Below are positions 7,823 to 50,168 of a DNA stretch of 64,000 nt, one piece after another. The stretch lies in IMG/VR virus record IMGVR_UViG_3300035162_000505. One strand, given 5' to 3'. Under the pieces are notes generated by a model that saw nothing but the letters and a program-made list of their open reading frames with translations, ran no database searches and was not told the origin of the DNA. Made by a program: the position numbers and the translations under genes. This DNA comes from an uncultured virus (IMG/VR IMGVR_UViG_3300035162_000505). Its lineage: Duplodnaviria > Heunggongvirae > Uroviricota > Caudoviricetes. Position 1 is the stretch's first letter. The number at the start of each line of letters is the position of its first letter.

Positions 7823-7899
7823 TGGTGGTCTCTACTGGACTCGAACCAGTAACCTACTGCTTAGAAGGCAGTTGCTCTATCCAGTTGAGCTAAGAAACC
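7823..7899 (-). tRNA. tRNA-Arg (anticodon TCT), CCA encoded
   Basis: GGTTTCTTAGCTCAACTGGATAGAGCAACTGCCTTCTAAGCAGTAGGTTACTGGTTCGAGTCCAGTAGAGACCACCA folds as a cloverleaf. Confidence 0.95.
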
Positions 7900-40736: not shown

Positions 40737-41165
40737 CTAACCACGTTTTCTTGCTAACTCTGCTTTGCGAATCTTCGGCATAAGTTTTTTAGCGAGTCTG
40801 CCAACCTTACCCGACATCTTATCTAGGCGCTTTTCTATCTCCGCTTTTCTAGAAGGAGTTAGATCTGCCTTAGATATGCCTTTAGTAAGTTTTTTAGTGA
40901 TTGCATTACGTGCGGCTCTACGTGATCTTTTTTCAAGTTTACCTTTATCGGCAACTTTCATAGAAGCTTTCTTACGGCCCATCTTTAAACGTGCCGCAAA
41001 CTTTTTCATTTGTAAACCTTTTTTACGTCTCGCCGCCATGCTCAACGCTTCATCTGTAGGCTCTACAGCTTCTTTTCTTTTCTTAGCATTCAATGCTAGT
41101 TGTGGATCACCCGTTTGTGTGTAGTCCACATTTATATAATCTCTAAAGTTTAATTTCTTCGCCAT
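40737..41165 (-). CDS. basic hypothetical virion protein
   Basis: EALSMAARRK; Arg/Lys rich. Confidence 0.55.
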   Translation of the reverse strand: MAKKLNFRDYINVDYTQTGDPQLALNAKKRKEAVEPTDEALSMAARRKKGLQMKKFAARLKMGRKKASMKVADKGKLEKRSRRAARNAITKKLTKGISKADLTPSRKAEIEKRLDKMSGKVGRLAKKLMPKIRKAELARKRG

Positions 41166-42363
41166 CTACTTTACTTTCTGGTTTATCCCATCCCTTTAAA
41201 ATATTCGGTGAAAAGTTGTTGTATGAAAACTCCATACGATCAACCAATTTCACTGCTTCACCACCTAGTGTATCTATAGCCACGTAACCTTCGGCTTTTG
41301 TGGCCTTGTAGCCACAGTCAGTCTTAACGAAAGTTTTAACTTCACTCACAATATCAAGAGTATTTATAACTTTTATTTTGGCTGAAACTAAGTGTTTTTG
41401 TAAATCGAATATCTTTTTTAGGTCTGATTTAGTGTCAGTAGTAAAGAAAGATAGTATATCATCTAATAGTTCTTGCTGAACAAGCTTGCCTTTAGATGTT
41501 TTCCTCTTATCGATCTCTGTTTGAAACCGTGAAGAGATCCAACCAATGAAGCCTGATACATGACTTGCTGTATCTCCAATGGCTTCGCCCTTCCTAACAA
41601 AAGTATTATTGAATTGCTCAATAAACATTGGTAGAGTTTTATGGGATTGGATATTGTTGAGTGTGTTGCTAGGGATCTTATTGAAGAGTTTACCACACTC
41701 AGATAAATCTTCTGATACTTTTACAATGCTTTCGTTAGTGATGCTCTCATTAATATCCATCATAGAACTAATATAGAACACATCATCACTCTTATGAAAC
41801 GCATTTAGGTCTACACCAAAGGTTGCTTCCATAGTTTCAAAGGAGTTACCCTTATAGGAAGTGTGCCATACGATGCCAATCTTGGCTGAAGTAATGGCCT
41901 TTGCTGTATCTGAATTAGCAGGGACACCATACACAATAGTGTTAGGGTGGAAAGTAACATAATCATTTCCTTCAATAGTTTGCTGTTCCAGATCATCTGA
42001 CTTGAACAGCCAGTCACCTTGGACAACACCTGTGATACCTAGAGAAGGTAAGTGCTTAAGAGCAAGTTTAAGTTTAATGGATAGGCCACCACTAGTATCG
42101 GCATCCACATCTGCATCTGACTTGTAAACTTTAGGAGTTTTGTTGAAGATACCTTTCTTTGCTACGAAGAAAGCCCCATCACTAGGGTCAATACCAGCAA
42201 AGATAGAGGGAGTACCATCCCACTTGACAGAGACAGACCCACTTTGGTCGCTCCTTAATAAGTTCTTTAGTTCACGTACAGCAACGATGGCCTGACGAGT
42301 CCCGTCAACACCACCGTATAGTACCTTATCTTCAAGGTGAGTCATATGTGTATTCTTTGTCAT
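41143..42363 (-). CDS. conserved phage protein (DUF6267-like, nucleotidyltransferase/ligase-like motifs)
   Basis: THLED, VKWDGTP, QGD, FHPNT, EGYV, KLVDRMEFS. Confidence 0.6.
   Translation of the reverse strand: MTKNTHMTHLEDKVLYGGVDGTRQAIVAVRELKNLLRSDQSGSVSVKWDGTPSIFAGIDPSDGAFFVAKKGIFNKTPKVYKSDADVDADTSGGLSIKLKLALKHLPSLGITGVVQGDWLFKSDDLEQQTIEGNDYVTFHPNTIVYGVPANSDTAKAITSAKIGIVWHTSYKGNSFETMEATFGVDLNAFHKSDDVFYISSMMDINESITNESIVKVSEDLSECGKLFNKIPSNTLNNIQSHKTLPMFIEQFNNTFVRKGEAIGDTASHVSGFIGWISSRFQTEIDKRKTSKGKLVQQELLDDILSFFTTDTKSDLKKIFDLQKHLVSAKIKVINTLDIVSEVKTFVKTDCGYKATKAEGYVAIDTLGGEAVKLVDRMEFSYNNFSPNILKGWDKPESKVDGEEIKL
41361..41368 (-). promoter_or_regulatory. T4-type late promoter for the putative virion-protein cluster
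   Basis: TATAAATA ~200 nt upstream of 41165. Confidence 0.55.
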
Positions 42364-42399
42364 ACTTATGTTATACACTGATTCGTTATAAATGTCAAG

Positions 42400-46293: not shown

Positions 46294-46788
46294 TTATCCA
46301 TACACACAACCAACAATATGAACTCTAGAGTTCTTCGAAGCATTAACTGCCGTGTGACGTAAGGTTGTATTTGTTAGATATACTTTTCCAATTTCAAGTA
46401 TATAATTTTTATTGTCTATCACCATGAAGCAATCATCATTTGTGATAAGTGGTATGTGTATGCGTTTAGTCATGTCTTGATGTAATGTTAAACACGTTTT
46501 AGGATCACTCTGCATAATCCTAGTACGTAACATTCCATACTTTTCCATCAACCTATTTATGATAGGTAGTTCGAATAAAGAATATTTGAAGTAGGTCTCA
46601 GGGTATTGTAGTTTATCTACTCTACCAATAGAAGATCCCCACTCTTTCAATGGATCTAAGTCTGGCTTGTGTCCTTGGATACCCACCTGACCTATGTTAG
46701 CCCAGCCTTTATTCAACATCACTTTAACTGTATTGGCTTCTTCTAAAACTTTTAGGTGGTCAATCTCTTCTAATACTTCTATATGCAT
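46294..46788 (-). CDS. 2OG-Fe(II) oxygenase (Asp/Asn beta-hydroxylase-like)
   Basis: LTLHQD, RIHIPLITN, HTAVN, RVHIV. Confidence 0.7.
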   Translation of the reverse strand: MHIEVLEEIDHLKVLEEANTVKVMLNKGWANIGQVGIQGHKPDLDPLKEWGSSIGRVDKLQYPETYFKYSLFELPIINRLMEKYGMLRTRIMQSDPKTCLTLHQDMTKRIHIPLITNDDCFMVIDNKNYILEIGKVYLTNTTLRHTAVNASKNSRVHIVGCVYG

Positions 46789-46871
46789 AATATTCCCTAA
46801 AGTAGATGGGGGCTAACCATGGCCCCCTACGCACCTATTTAGCGGTGAACCTATCCAAAATATATTTTAGA

Positions 46872-47243
46872 TTAGAATGCGAATGACATACCGATAGTTG
46901 TGTCACCGAAATCTAGATCTCCATCAGAAGATATCTTACCAAAAAGAGACATACCATCAAAACCTAATGGGTAAGTTCCTTTTACGTCTACACCTTGGAA
47001 CACATCTACAGTTGAACCACCATCAAAACCTAATAGGTCGAAGTTGGATGTTACTGATGTGCCGATTCCCCAAACGCTTGTGCTCACTTTTGGCATTACT
47101 TTTAATGCCCAGATGCCTGAGTCAACGTTCATTGAAGTTTCAACTTCTCCACCAAAGTCTAGTCCCATGCTGGAAGAACCTTCGGCTGAAGCTTGGTTTG
47201 CAACTAGAAGTGCTGTTGCTGTTGCGATTACTGCGAGTTTCAT
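46872..47243 (-). CDS. small outer-membrane beta-barrel/porin-like protein
   Basis: Signal peptide (ASA), amphipathic beta pattern, C-terminal GMSFAF. Confidence 0.65.
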   Translation of the reverse strand: MKLAVIATATALLVANQASAEGSSSMGLDFGGEVETSMNVDSGIWALKVMPKVSTSVWGIGTSVTSNFDLLGFDGGSTVDVFQGVDVKGTYPLGFDGMSLFGKISSDGDLDFGDTTIGMSFAF

Positions 47244-47269
47244 TTATTTTCCTAATATGAAGTTTAAGT

Positions 47270-47650
47270 TAGTGTCACTTTTCTGTTGCTAGGTAAGTGA
47301 CCAACCCCCTTTGTTAGGCCGCTATTGCGGTGTAACCAGATGGTGCAAAGTTATTGTTTGCGTTTAGTAGTTTGACTTATAACGAGGTCAATCGGTAAAC
47401 TCCACTTTCATCTTCACACCTGTCGATCCTATTTCATCCCCATCATAATGACACTTTTTTCCACAGTGAGTACAGTATAATTTTGTTGGCTTCCAGTCTT
47501 CCATAGTCGCAACTGACCACCACCCCTTACAATCAGTGCAAACTAAATGCCATATTATCTCTCTGTTTCGTTCCATAAATGTCCTTATGGTGGAGATGTC
47601 GGGTACCGCCCCCGAGTCCAGTATGTGTCCACGTTGCTTCAACGTTTACA
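47270..47650 (-). ncRNA. ssrA: circularly permuted (two-piece) tmRNA
   Basis: Acceptor piece ends TCGGG-GGCGGTA-CCCGA-CATCTCCACCA at 47588. Coding piece starts GGGGATG at 47441, giving the G3.U70 pair. Tag ORF 47314-47361 reads ANNNFAPSGYTAIAA*. Confidence 0.93.
47388..47576 (-). CDS. 62-aa zinc-ribbon protein starting in the tmRNA intervening segment
   Basis: AAGGA RBS, ATG at 47576, CTDC...CTHC. Confidence 0.65.
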   Translation of the reverse strand: MERNREIIWHLVCTDCKGWWSVATMEDWKPTKLYCTHCGKKCHYDGDEIGSTGVKMKVEFTD

Positions 47651-47656
47651 GATATA

Positions 47657-47685
47657 CTTATATCACAAAAGGGGAGTCTTGTCCA
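47657..47685 (-). promoter_or_regulatory. tmRNA promoter
   Basis: TGGACA-17nt-TATAAG with GACTC in the spacer. Confidence 0.55.
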
Positions 47686-47727
47686 CCCCCCTTTCGCTAA
47701 ATTTTATATTGTGGTAAATATATCACT

Positions 47728-48210
47728 CTAGAACTTTCCAAGATACCTTGCAATATTTCCAACAAATGGTAGCAGGGCTACAGCCATTAATAGGTTCATA
47801 CCCGTATGTGCTACAGCAATTCTTAAAGTATCACCTTTTGGCATACCATCAGATACTAATATTCCAGCCAACCAAATAGTTCCAGTTGTCCCAATGTTAG
47901 CACCAAGCACTGCCGCAATAGCCGCTGGTAATGGTACGGCTCCTGATGCAACTAATGCTATAATAGCAGTTGTTGATAATGAAGAAGACTGCCATAGCAG
48001 AGTCATCACTATACCGCCAACAAACATATAATATACGTTGCTGGTAAAATATGACAAGTGGTCCATGTTACCCATAGATTTCATGCCACCTGAGAATGTT
48101 TTCAAGCCAATGTAGAATATAACCAATCCTACAAGTGCTGTAATAACAGGGTTACCCATATCCATTTTTTTTACTTTCTTTGTTAGTTTCTGAATAGTAG
48201 TTTTTGCCAC
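47728..48210 (-). CDS. Na+/Pi cotransporter family protein (single repeat)
   Basis: LWQSSSLST, GANIGTT; hydrophobic. Confidence 0.85.
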   Translation of the reverse strand: MAKTTIQKLTKKVKKMDMGNPVITALVGLVIFYIGLKTFSGGMKSMGNMDHLSYFTSNVYYMFVGGIVMTLLWQSSSLSTTAIIALVASGAVPLPAAIAAVLGANIGTTGTIWLAGILVSDGMPKGDTLRIAVAHTGMNLLMAVALLPFVGNIARYLGKF

Positions 48211-48231
48211 GACTCATTTCTCCTAAAATGA

Positions 48232-49101
48232 TTAATAACTTTGGGCTAGACGCCACATTAAATATTCTTTACTCTCTATTGGTTCGTATTTATCCTTTGC
48301 TTCTATTAGGTTGCTTACTATAGTTCCGGGGGTTGGATCTACAAAGTGTGGCATAGAATATCTGTTTAGATGCATATGACTATTCACCACTCTATGCTTT
48401 GTGCTTTTAAAATAATCGTTGGTCCAACGTTGTAGTAAATCACCTATATTAACAACAACACCATTGTCAGCATAAGGGACTGGATGCCAAGCACCACCAA
48501 GATCTTGAACTTGTAACCCCGGAACGTCATTAATCTGCCAAAGAAGCGTGATAGTTCCATAGTCGCTATGCTCTCCGATTCTTAATTGTCGCTCTTCAAA
48601 TTCCTCTTCTAATTCAAAAACTGATGGATAATGAATAACTCTGGTAGTGTTGTATGGTTTTATATGTGCATCGACAAGAGTATTGCCAGTGCCAAGTATA
48701 TCGTCAAACTTTCTTAAAATACGTAATGTCAATTTATCAGCAATGTCTATACTCTGAAGAGCACTTGCTTTAAAGTTTGGAAGATCTTTAGGCCAAAGGT
48801 GATCACCCATCCTAGTATTATTATAGTTAAAGCTTTCTTTTAAATCTTTAGGTGCAGTAGGATCTACATTCTCATCACCCACGACACTATACCCCAAGTT
48901 GGTATCACCTTCATAGGGGTATTTCATTTTTGTCTCTAGGTCCAAGTCAAAGAATAGTTTCATTTCATCAAACCAGCAACTCATGTCACTCTGTTCGTTT
49001 GAACTCAAACAATTCGTAAAGACCGCAAAGCCCACTGTTGTGTAGGCTCTGCGTATCTGACCGAATGCGTCTCTTGCTTTCAAGTCTATTACTGGTATCA
49101 T
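48232..49101 (-). CDS. isopenicillin N synthase-family 2OG-Fe(II) dioxygenase
   Basis: IPVIDL, DLKESF, HSDYGTITLL, GLQV, NIGDLLQRWTND..KSTKHRV, RYSMP. Confidence 0.9.
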   Translation of the reverse strand: MIPVIDLKARDAFGQIRRAYTTVGFAVFTNCLSSNEQSDMSCWFDEMKLFFDLDLETKMKYPYEGDTNLGYSVVGDENVDPTAPKDLKESFNYNNTRMGDHLWPKDLPNFKASALQSIDIADKLTLRILRKFDDILGTGNTLVDAHIKPYNTTRVIHYPSVFELEEEFEERQLRIGEHSDYGTITLLWQINDVPGLQVQDLGGAWHPVPYADNGVVVNIGDLLQRWTNDYFKSTKHRVVNSHMHLNRYSMPHFVDPTPGTIVSNLIEAKDKYEPIESKEYLMWRLAQSY

Positions 49102-50168
49102 GACGGTGGTGTAGCCGTAATGCCTTCGACATAGAAGTCCATTGTGTCAAGTTGCATACGTGTTGCGACTTCACCAACTTCTAAGAATACTGAACCATCT
49201 TGCTTATTGATTGGTCCCGTAAATCCATGTAACGTTCCAGCCGAAATAGCATCCTTTACTATCTGTGCTTCTAATGCTACATTTGCTGGCATATTAGTAA
49301 ACGGTGCCATTTGAACAGCACCCGTATTCATGTGACCAAAGTAATCACCTGTCTTCCATGTGCCATCTAATACTTGACCAACTTTGTCAATATAGTATGG
49401 ACCCCAATTATCAATAGTAGCAGTCAACTGTGCTTTAGGAGCAAACTTAAGTTGATCTGATGCCTGACCAAAACCAACCTTACCAGCCTTTTCAGCGGCA
49501 ATCAGTGGTGCTGGTGAGTCTGTATGCTGTGCTACAACATCACAACCTTGTTCCATCATAGATTTAGCGGCATCACCTTCTTTGGCTGGATCATACCAAG
49601 TATAAACCCACACGATACTTAACTCTACATCAGGGTTCATCTTCTTTGCGCCCAAGTAATATGTGTTAATTTCACGCATAACTTCTGGGATTGGGAAAGA
49701 AGCAACGTAACAAATCTTATTTGTTTTTGTCATCAACCCAGCAATGATACCTTGAACGTGGCGTGATTGATATAACTTCAATCCATAGTTCGCCGCATTC
49801 TCAGACTGCTTGTATCCAGTAGCGTGTTCAAACTTTACGTTAGGAAACTTTTTAGCCACTGATAGAACTGAGTCCATGTAGCCAAAAGAGGTTGCAAAGA
49901 TAATGTCTGCACCTTTAAGAGCCATAGCAGTCATTACACGTTCTGAGTCTGGACCTTCTGGTACGCTCTCAACAAAGACTGTTTCAACTCTGTCTCCATA
50001 AGCTTCTTCAACTTGCTGGCGTCCAATGTCGTGACGGTATGTCCAGCCATGATCTCCTGTGGGTCCAACGTATATAAAGCCAACTTTAACTTTATCCTTT
50101 GCTACTGATGAAGTAGTAAGACCTACCATCAGTAATAGTGCAGTTAGCACTGTTGTAAATAGTTTCAA
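49098..50168 (-). CDS. BMP-family ABC transporter substrate-binding protein (nucleoside/purine type)
   Basis: KVGFIYVGP.GDHGW, TSFGY, FEHATG, IPEV, WYDP, QHTDSPAP, NWGPYY. Confidence 0.9.
   Translation of the reverse strand: MKLFTTVLTALLLMVGLTTSSVAKDKVKVGFIYVGPTGDHGWTYRHDIGRQQVEEAYGDRVETVFVESVPEGPDSERVMTAMALKGADIIFATSFGYMDSVLSVAKKFPNVKFEHATGYKQSENAANYGLKLYQSRHVQGIIAGLMTKTNKICYVASFPIPEVMREINTYYLGAKKMNPDVELSIVWVYTWYDPAKEGDAAKSMMEQGCDVVAQHTDSPAPLIAAEKAGKVGFGQASDQLKFAPKAQLTATIDNWGPYYIDKVGQVLDGTWKTGDYFGHMNTGAVQMAPFTNMPANVALEAQIVKDAISAGTLHGFTGPINKQDGSVFLEVGEVATRMQLDTMDFYVEGITATPPS

Follow-up and report, generated by a model that had tools for sequence, protein, structure and literature searches.

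It is usual to regard tmRNA genes as coding for RNA alone, and to see in the intervening sequence (IVS) of the two-piece form a short spacer that is discarded; we know of no explanation so far for why phages carry tmRNA. The locus described here raises the question of what a small open reading frame (ORF) with its own ribosome-binding site is doing inside such an IVS. The window, that is, the whole analysed stretch of 64,000 nucleotides from an uncultured virus (IMG/VR record IMGVR_UViG_3300035162_000505; Caudoviricetes), looks like a large marine myophage. Its GC content is about 0.33-0.43, and a 411-aa protein encoded at 41143-42378 has matches in 408 phage records, most of them from cyanomyophages, with Phage C48C1 (53.9%) and Melnitz phages (41.8%) ranking best. 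Genes in the neighbourhood encode, among others, a 2OG-Fe(II) oxygenase and a Bmp/PnrA-like binding protein, and there is a short ORF that resembles a Na/Pi-cotransporter. Megablast of 15 kb revealed no near-identical phage, and the nearest record (G001, 17% complete) contains no tmRNA. A blastn search with the tmRNA returned only T-arm matches, to three roseophage/Rhodobacter phage tmRNAs whose IVSs are GC-rich and 106-111 nt long.

Anatomy of the tmRNA gene and its reading frame

A permuted tmRNA with the tag ANNNFAPSGYTAIAA is identified by ARAGORN on the minus strand (47223-47681). Two Rfam models agree with it, both scoring above their curated thresholds: RF04321 (tmRNA_permuted), which aligns to 47314-47649, reaches 111 bits (gathering 47, E 8.6e-21), and RF01849 (alpha_tmRNA), which aligns to 47271-47689, reaches 99.5 bits (gathering 50). 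We take the RF01849 limits, 47271..47689 (-), as those of the whole two-piece alpha-type gene, which is read in the order acceptor piece, IVS, coding piece. The acceptor piece (47588..47649, -), delimited by the start of the RF04321 alignment at 47649, the sequence and the fold, comprises the T-arm and the 3' acceptor strand and ends with an encoded CCA (...CTCCACCA, last A at 47588). The coding piece (47271..47441, -) begins, according to the Rfam alignments, with G+1 at 47441, the predicted RNase P site. Since the CCA ends at 47588 and G+1 lies at 47441, the IVS that would be removed in maturation spans 146 nt (47442..47587, -), and it appears in both Rfam alignments as a long unaligned insert between ...CUCCACCA and GGGGAUG.

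The features expected of the tRNA-like domain were all found, i.e., a T-arm, a 7-bp acceptor stem and an encoded CCA. Read from the sequence, GGGGATG pairs with CATCTCC, the third pair being the G3.U wobble, and both the T-arm and the acceptor stem are present in the minimum free energy (MFE) fold of the precursor. The tag reading frame (47314..47361, -) runs from the alanine resume codon GCA at 47361, through a hydrophobic end of the tag, to a TAA ending at 47314; ARAGORN places this coding part at 321-368 of the gene. A TGAT leader before the GGGG is kept in relatives. A promoter and terminator scan that does not cover phage promoters showed no sigma-70-like site just ahead of the tmRNA on its own strand, the minus strand. 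We conclude that the tmRNA gene is real and encodes a two-piece tmRNA of a marine phage that is predicted to work. The permuted arrangement had first been proposed in a sequence-only reading of this DNA, which left confirmation to ARAGORN and Infernal; on the minus strand, all of its coordinates proved correct to the base.

The ORF in question also lies on the minus strand. An AAGGA at 47586-47582 precedes an ATG at 47576, from which 45 codons run within the IVS (47576-47442) and 17 more within the coding piece (47441-47388, including the stop), exactly as the sequence-only reading had described. The stop codon, TGA at 47390-47388, lies upstream of the tag frame, so that the ORF (47388..47576) consists of 62 codons plus TGA. 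Its 62-aa product (P0001) carries two CxxC knuckles, CTDC at residues 13-16 and CTHC at residues 35-38. According to the ORF list, the frame is open over 47388..47642. A longer, 84-aa ORF from a TTG at 47642 was rejected because its start falls within the acceptor piece and lacks a ribosome-binding site.

The same ORF occupies the same place in four IMG/VR contigs (L004-L007), with 78-92% amino-acid identity. For the final 40 codons of the IVS, the nine pairs with synonymous differences have a pN/pS of 0.07-0.19, and the variable columns fall on codon positions 1, 2 and 3 in a 4/4/12 ratio (12 of 20 at the third position). The sequence-only reading had pointed to dN/dS of the spacer ORF as a measure of its reality, and by this measure the ORF is conserved: judged from its substitution pattern, it is a real gene under purifying selection. 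One could still suppose that the frame is incidental and that the conserved IVS is a structured RNA element. The precursor does fold better than shuffled sequences (z = -3.35), and many ORF-less IVSs of 60-110 nt among the matches listed look structured. However, changes concentrated at third codon positions with such low pN/pS, a ribosome-binding site followed by an ATG, and homologues that, down to about 30% identity in other contexts, preserve an invariant C4/GWWS core all speak for a translated frame, and we find the purely structural explanation hardly credible.

Transcript data were also consulted, in the form of assembled contigs from four marine metatranscriptomes, which stood among 16 RNA runs with partial word sharing. 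The low-depth contigs cover 47200-47445 only, and those of high depth belong to other tmRNAs, which have 8-21 letters where the IVS would be. The zinc-ribbon IVS is covered by no contig of these four sets, which is evidence neither way.

Cargo of phage intervening sequences

A 17-nt motif of the coding piece retrieved at least 120 viral stretches, 80 of which had full flanks. Together with the loci found earlier, 122 tmRNAs were parsed among the matches listed, yielding 112 unique IVSs of 3-247 nt, and 57 of these 112 were at least 95 nt long. An ATG-initiated ORF spans at least 60% of the IVS in 35 of the 57 long viral IVSs listed, compared with 13.4% of shuffled IVSs and 4/57 reverse complements. 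When a ribosome-binding site 4-15 nt upstream was required as well, 23 IVSs in 13 unrelated families remained among the matches listed. In seven of these 13 listed families the frame ends within the IVS, using the TGA in the conserved TGAT leader in five cases and a stop of its own in two; the other six read across into the coding piece. In addition, one IVS (L111) holds a tRNA-Arg.

Bacterial IVSs are different. Among the matches listed, 79 bacterial alpha-type tmRNAs, drawn with a slightly different seed motif from the viral ones, have IVSs of 1-83 nt (median 29). None of the 79 reaches 95 nt, the three longest (68-83 nt) contain ORFs of at most 21 codons, and no ORF families of the phage kind, with a ribosome-binding site, were found in them. 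Within these samples, long ORF-carrying IVSs are common in permuted phage tmRNAs, and the sequence comparison marks the IVS as a phage-specific cargo slot.

The contents of the slot and its surroundings have distinct histories. Compared with the window, locus L008 is 94% identical in the acceptor piece and 89% in the coding piece, whereas its IVS is only 61% identical and carries a different ORF; for this ORF family (family B), only its own cluster was found and no free-standing relative. Conversely, the flanks of L006 and L007 share only 73-76% identity with the window, and their IVSs 92-93%. Such discordance between IVS and tmRNA flanks indicates cassette exchange of IVS content between tmRNA genes, as far as can be told from alignments.

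These observations lend themselves to a simple explanation, in which the IVS serves as a 'safe harbour', tolerant and strongly transcribed, that takes in unrelated small genes, tRNAs and RNA elements, the zinc ribbon being one such passenger and functionally unrelated to tmRNA. The occupation of the same slot by 13 unrelated ORF families and a tRNA-Arg among the matches listed is what such a harbour would produce, as is the mosaic of IVS and flanks. Whether this passenger explanation suffices depends on where else the family is found.

The zinc-ribbon family and its neighbours

Seven protein clusters were found by a word-based search, two of which (P0006 and P0007) bear unrelated extensions at the C-terminus. 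With a profile built from 18 sequences, 817 representative clusters were matched at E<=1e-3, including 99 at E<=1e-10; most measure 45-90 aa. Twelve positions are invariant in the 18 sequences (E6, H10, C13, C16, G18, W19, W20, S21, A23, C35, C38 and G39), including all four cysteines of the CTDC...CTHC pattern on which the sequence-only reading had based its zinc-ribbon assignment. The conserved domain of this profile ends at residue 39-40, well within the part encoded by the IVS. In the AF2 model, a beta-rich core has pLDDT 70-80, with strands at 6-13 and 19-25, and the tail read from the coding piece (residues 46-62) has pLDDT below 50 and is predicted to be disordered. The two conserved CxxC knuckles and the modelled beta-hairpin scaffold identify the protein as a C4 zinc ribbon.

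Named families gave little to compare it with. Pfam contains no match above cut-off, the best being Zn_ribbon_10 (15 bits vs 24.2), and a Pfam scan at E<=0.1 gave only weak zinc-ribbon/DUF matches and no ArfA. The relatives likewise stay under the Pfam cut-offs, with the exception of one two-domain protein, and PHROGs yielded nothing above cut-offs for the protein or its relatives. The structure search envisaged in the sequence-only reading for the 62-aa protein, carried out with Foldseek against the PDB, found no match at E<=1e-3; the best (0.11) were generic zinc ribbons such as S27e. In the ESM Atlas, only unnamed viral clusters were matched. None of these family and structure searches gave a match that points to an activity. 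A homing endonuclease was considered and rejected, as the ORF has no LAGLIDADG, HNH or GIY-YIG match in Pfam or PHROGs and 45-62 aa is too small for one. The protein is a zinc ribbon of about 40 residues, of the C4 type, in an unnamed and mostly viral family.

A profile-guided scan of viral contigs produced 168 relatives, the best 80 of which were kept with 700-nt flanks; contexts were called by Rfam at gathering thresholds and by ARAGORN, and four of the loci (L289-L292) are the contigs of L004-L007. A permuted tmRNA lies within 700 nt of 20 of these best 80 loci, a sample biased to tmRNA-linked relatives because it was ranked by similarity to an IVS-borne query, and one whose counts are not independent events because the loci fall into about 6-7 lineages or arrangements. 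Three positions were observed among the best 80. At ten loci the ORF lies inside the IVS, four of them of the type seen in the window and six of a second type (L293, L296, L297, L299, L311 and L321). Nine loci have it upstream, on the strand of the tmRNA, at a distance from the core that ranges from about 1 nt (L337) or about 60 nt (L327) to about 390 nt, and several of these nine tmRNAs are beta-type (RF01850). At one locus (L306/L156) it lies downstream. The two IVS-borne groups are divergent: IVSs are 146-152 nt long in the window-type group and 133 nt in the second, where the ORF has 42 codons within the IVS followed by 8 within the coding piece, and no clear ribosome-binding site ahead of its ATG.

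Of the other loci among the best 80, eight have only tRNA genes within 700 nt and 52 have neither tRNA nor tmRNA. The linkage is therefore not obligatory. When ten records of this last group were searched whole, a permuted tmRNA was found elsewhere on the contig in three, one of these being the sole record among the ten that is at least 90% complete. Free-standing homologues outside tmRNA genes on other viral contigs carry their own stop codons, and at two of the eight tRNA-only loci (L323 and L325, identical to each other) the zinc-ribbon ORF ends 10 nt inside a tRNA-Pro gene. As eight loci adjoin tRNA genes alone, the family may simply sit in a general tRNA/small-gene region, and tRNAs and small genes are in any case grouped in large phages; there would then be no functional tie to tmRNA.

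By gene order, the zinc-ribbon family is syntenic with tmRNA genes of both the alpha and the beta type, in three positions. This linkage, which we consider the strongest fact about the locus, was absent from the sequence-only reading. It also bears on the passenger explanation. The 52 of the best 80 loci with no tmRNA nearby, and the occurrence of the family next to plain tRNA arrays, are as expected of a gene that has nothing to do with tmRNA. On the other hand, a mere passenger of the slot would hardly recur in three positions relative to tmRNAs of two types, nor would it, for one and the same tmRNA type, be found either inside the IVS (the L293 group) or 290 nt downstream (L156/L306), all the more since permuted tmRNAs are rare in phages: two-piece tmRNAs number 53 in 18,146 phage genomes according to the available text of the Melnitz paper (PMC9004378). 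Weighing both sides, we regard an unrelated passenger as rather unlikely, although it is an explanation to be taken seriously. The synteny leads us to infer instead a protein that works on, or together with, tmRNA or trans-translation, with a role that may lie, for example, in maturation, binding or modulation.

Translation, processing and known systems

The position of the ribosome-binding site suggests how expression of the ORF might be coupled to the RNA around it. In the MFE fold, most of the AAGGA (4 of its 5 bases) is taken up in pairing with the 3' end of the IVS. The 5' strand of this closing stem (47577..47589, -) holds the AAGGA (47582-47586), and the 3' strand (47444..47456, -), from fold and sequence, doubles as the last IVS codons (..KCHYD). 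Closing stems are general in the slot. With in-register pairing of the first and last IVS bases and at least 7 of 9 pairs as the threshold, 95 of the 99 viral IVSs of at least 40 nt among the matches listed have one, with a mean of 8.63 pairs as against 6.38 for mismatched 5'/3' partners. Among the same matches, the 5' stem strand reads TAAGGA or AAAGGAG in IVSs whose ORF has a ribosome-binding site, and TAGATAC, TAAACAC and similar in ORF-less ones. Many ORF-less IVSs of 60-110 nt in the listed sample have a structured appearance. Because the ribosome-binding site is paired in the closing stem, translation should take place mainly before the precursor folds and not on the excised spacer.

On balance we consider it probable, if only just, that the locus is a tmRNA-linked small protein gene, co-transcribed in the pre-tmRNA, whose translation competes with RNase P processing. 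The zinc-ribbon gene would be transcribed as part of the pre-tmRNA, and ribosomes would load mainly on the nascent, unfolded precursor, before the 3' stem strand is made about 130 nt later. The ORF has no stop before G+1 and would borrow one 51 nt into the coding piece. A ribosome reaching the TGA at 47390-47388 must unwind the acceptor stem, so a given molecule would be either translated or processed; translation to the stop and the RNase P cut at G+1 would be mutually exclusive per molecule. A cut at 47441/47442 would part the ORF from its only in-frame stop. The cleaved IVS would then form a 3' trailer on the acceptor piece and is expected to be trimmed back to the CCA, as in tRNA 3' maturation, and ribosomes caught on the cleaved RNA would be nonstop substrates. 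Purifying selection on the protein implies that some of it is produced in stable form, for which the simplest and most likely source would be nascent or unprocessed precursors.

The sequence-only reading had gone further, proposing that RNase P makes the IVS into a stop-less mRNA whose product is tagged by tmRNA and degraded, in an ArfA-like feedback. We hold this to be improbable, and we are just as doubtful of its consequence, namely that the zinc-ribbon protein accumulates only when processing or trans-translation is limiting. Several facts do point this way. Homologues that always stop before the coding piece would have told against the proposal; instead, none of the 11 IVS-borne copies, which belong to two divergent tmRNA groups, stops within the IVS, and 11/11 cross the cleavage site in the same frame (GAT before the cut, GGG after it). 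The tail past the site is not conserved, with 3, 8, 14, 17, 18 or at least 30 residues, and its predicted disorder and variable length fit a part that is dispensable or never made. Linkage of the family to tmRNA would suit a factor tied to trans-translation, and the relative that ends 10 nt inside tRNA-Pro also overlaps an RNase P substrate. Regulation of arfA through a nonstop mRNA, as described in the passages available from PMC10107115, provides a precedent.

However, among the matches listed, the split of 7 IVS ORF families that stop in the IVS against 6 that read across is about what a random choice of frame would give, as 2 of 3 frames read across. The last IVS codons fall in the closing stem and the conserved TGAT leader, which together set them, so the missing stop may be a mere constraint of the RNA. 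Furthermore, family members outside IVSs have normal stops, the ribosome-binding site is paired in the folded RNA, the IVS left by an RNase P cut would be a trailer that tRNA 3' maturation is expected to trim, and Pfam gives no ArfA match. What holds from the proposal is the anatomy, the coding and conserved ORF, and the point that the cut would remove its only in-frame stop; stop-lessness as a general design does not hold, with 7/13 families stopping inside the IVS. The fullest version, in which the zinc ribbon would be a dedicated trans-translation factor whose synthesis is gated by pre-tmRNA maturation, with ribosomes loading on nothing but the nascent precursor (its ribosome-binding site being held in the closing stem), every round after cleavage a nonstop event tagged by the tmRNA of the phage, and its level a readout of tmRNA supply and demand, we likewise judge to be a long shot. 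If it were true, an ArfA-like feedback loop would be written inside the tmRNA gene itself, and phage tmRNA IVSs would form a class of processing-coupled expression slots for small proteins.

With competition between translation and processing as the preferred reading, the zinc ribbon can be tested as a candidate for a new partner protein, or regulator, of trans-translation, and the locus may offer a natural case of translation and RNase P processing competing on one transcript. In practical terms, annotation pipelines that mask tmRNA genes will miss such small genes. A literature search found no report of tmRNA-IVS ORFs or of a tmRNA-linked zinc-ribbon family, with Keiler 2000, Sharkady & Williams 2004 and Mao 2009 outside its scope; both are thus provisionally unreported.

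The tmRNA itself resembles the two-piece tmRNAs of alphaproteobacteria and phages (RF01849/RF04321) in gene order, encoded CCA, G3.U pair and a tag ending in AA. It differs from the bacterial ones in its IVS, which has 146 nt and codes for protein, whereas the bacterial IVSs among the matches listed have 1-83 nt and ORFs of at most 21 codons. Permuted tmRNAs are known from Melnitz-type marine myophages, together with a glnA riboswitch in the 3' domain (available text of PMC9004378); the word 'intervening' does not occur in that text. Cargo in tmRNA genes has been described in a 2025 database paper (PMC11915505), the accessible passages of which report group I introns with homing-endonuclease genes in the T-loop and, as cargo of the IVS, one tRNA-Ala and one repetitive element; the tRNA in the IVS is called a unique feature, and IVS ORFs go unmentioned in these passages. 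The present case is similar to the cargo in those passages in that the mature RNA lacks the part of the tmRNA gene where the foreign element is located, but here there is neither an intron nor an endonuclease domain, and the element is a small ORF with a ribosome-binding site, to be read from the precursor.

The likeness to arfA-type genes, in which regulation acts through a nonstop mRNA (PMC10107115, in the passages available), is that an endonuclease cut would remove the stop of a small ORF linked to ribosome rescue. The differences are that the zinc ribbon has no sequence relation to ArfA, that RNase P would be the cutting enzyme and a tmRNA precursor its substrate, that tagging is only proposed, and that relatives of the ORF outside IVSs have normal stops. 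Finally, the protein shares two CxxC knuckles and a beta-rich model with small C4 zinc ribbons such as Zn_ribbon_8/FmdB-like, Lar-like and DUF7836 proteins. Matches to the C4 zinc ribbons of Pfam stay below their cut-offs, and the C-K-G-W-W-S motif and the synteny with tmRNA genes are particular to this family.

Other ORF families in the intervening sequences of phage tmRNAs

Besides the zinc-ribbon ORF, other ORF families were found in the intervening sequences (IVSs) of phage permuted tmRNAs. A second common type is a tryptophan-rich ORF (viral loci L008, L013, L018, L025, L058, and L067; IVS of 139-149 nt), which has 41-43 codons and ends at a TAG located 10 nt into the coding piece. The tmRNA flanks of this set are 89-94% identical to those of the window, and a search for a free-standing relative of the ORF found none. 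One IVS family of 159-177 nt (L037, L061, L065, L072, L079, L082, L085, and L104) contains two overlapping ORFs, both with a ribosome-binding site. The first product is an acidic peptide of 18-23 aa with a conserved GDSDE motif, and the second is a hydrophobic peptide of 38-44 aa, whose stop is a TGA directly before G+1 (the first base of the coding piece and predicted RNase P site). In addition, the 182-nt IVS of L024 and L098 carries an ORF for a very basic 55-aa product with a CxxC; the leader's TGA serves as the stop codon of this ORF.

Zinc-ribbon homologues outside the intervening sequence

A zinc-ribbon homologue at L158:1195-1399 (same as L159, L323, and L325) overlaps a tRNA-Pro gene, with its final three codons and stop falling within the 5' strand of the tRNA; therefore, RNase P cleavage would take the stop away. 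The start codon of this homologue is doubtful because it is a TTG without a ribosome-binding site, overlapping the end of the upstream ORF. In the region L156:890-1353, another zinc-ribbon gene lies 290 nt downstream of a tmRNA whose IVS is short (27 nt), and comes after an IscA/HesB-like gene, overlapping it at ATGA. In close relatives of this phage, the L293 group, the zinc-ribbon gene is located within the IVS, not downstream.

Genomic surroundings of the tmRNAs

The tmRNA of the window is adjoined by a row of host-like genes (46294-50168, minus strand), namely an Asp/Asn beta-hydroxylase-like protein (46294-46788), a 160-aa Na/Pi-cotransporter-like ORF (47728-48210), a 2OG-Fe(II) oxygenase (48232-49101), and a Bmp/PnrA-like substrate-binding protein (49098-50168), all on the minus strand. 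The stretch that separates the Na/Pi-like ORF from the tmRNA contains a G-rich hairpin with a T run behind it (47690-47715, minus strand). This element resembles a terminator and lies immediately upstream of the tmRNA; it is absent from the list produced by a consensus promoter and terminator scan.

In Ruegeria phages vB_RpoS-V10 and DSS3P8, a GOLLD RNA (Rfam RF02032; L002:852-1285 and L003:852-1285) was observed upstream of the permuted tmRNA, at a distance of ~170 nt, its score of 151 bits being barely above the threshold of 150 bits. The records of these phages carry no annotation for either RNA.

tRNA-Arg genes in a phage tmRNA and in the window

The permuted tmRNA at L111:92-511 has a tRNA-Arg(TCT) gene (202-278) nested in its IVS. 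A tRNA in this position is described as a "unique feature" in a tmRNA database paper of 2025, which gives a single case, tRNA-Ala (PMC11915505). The window also contains a tRNA-Arg gene (7823-7899, minus strand) sharing the anticodon TCT with the nested tRNA of L111, and the same anticodon is reported among the tRNAs of Melnitz, a marine myophage group with a two-piece tmRNA, and pelagimyophages (PMC9004378).
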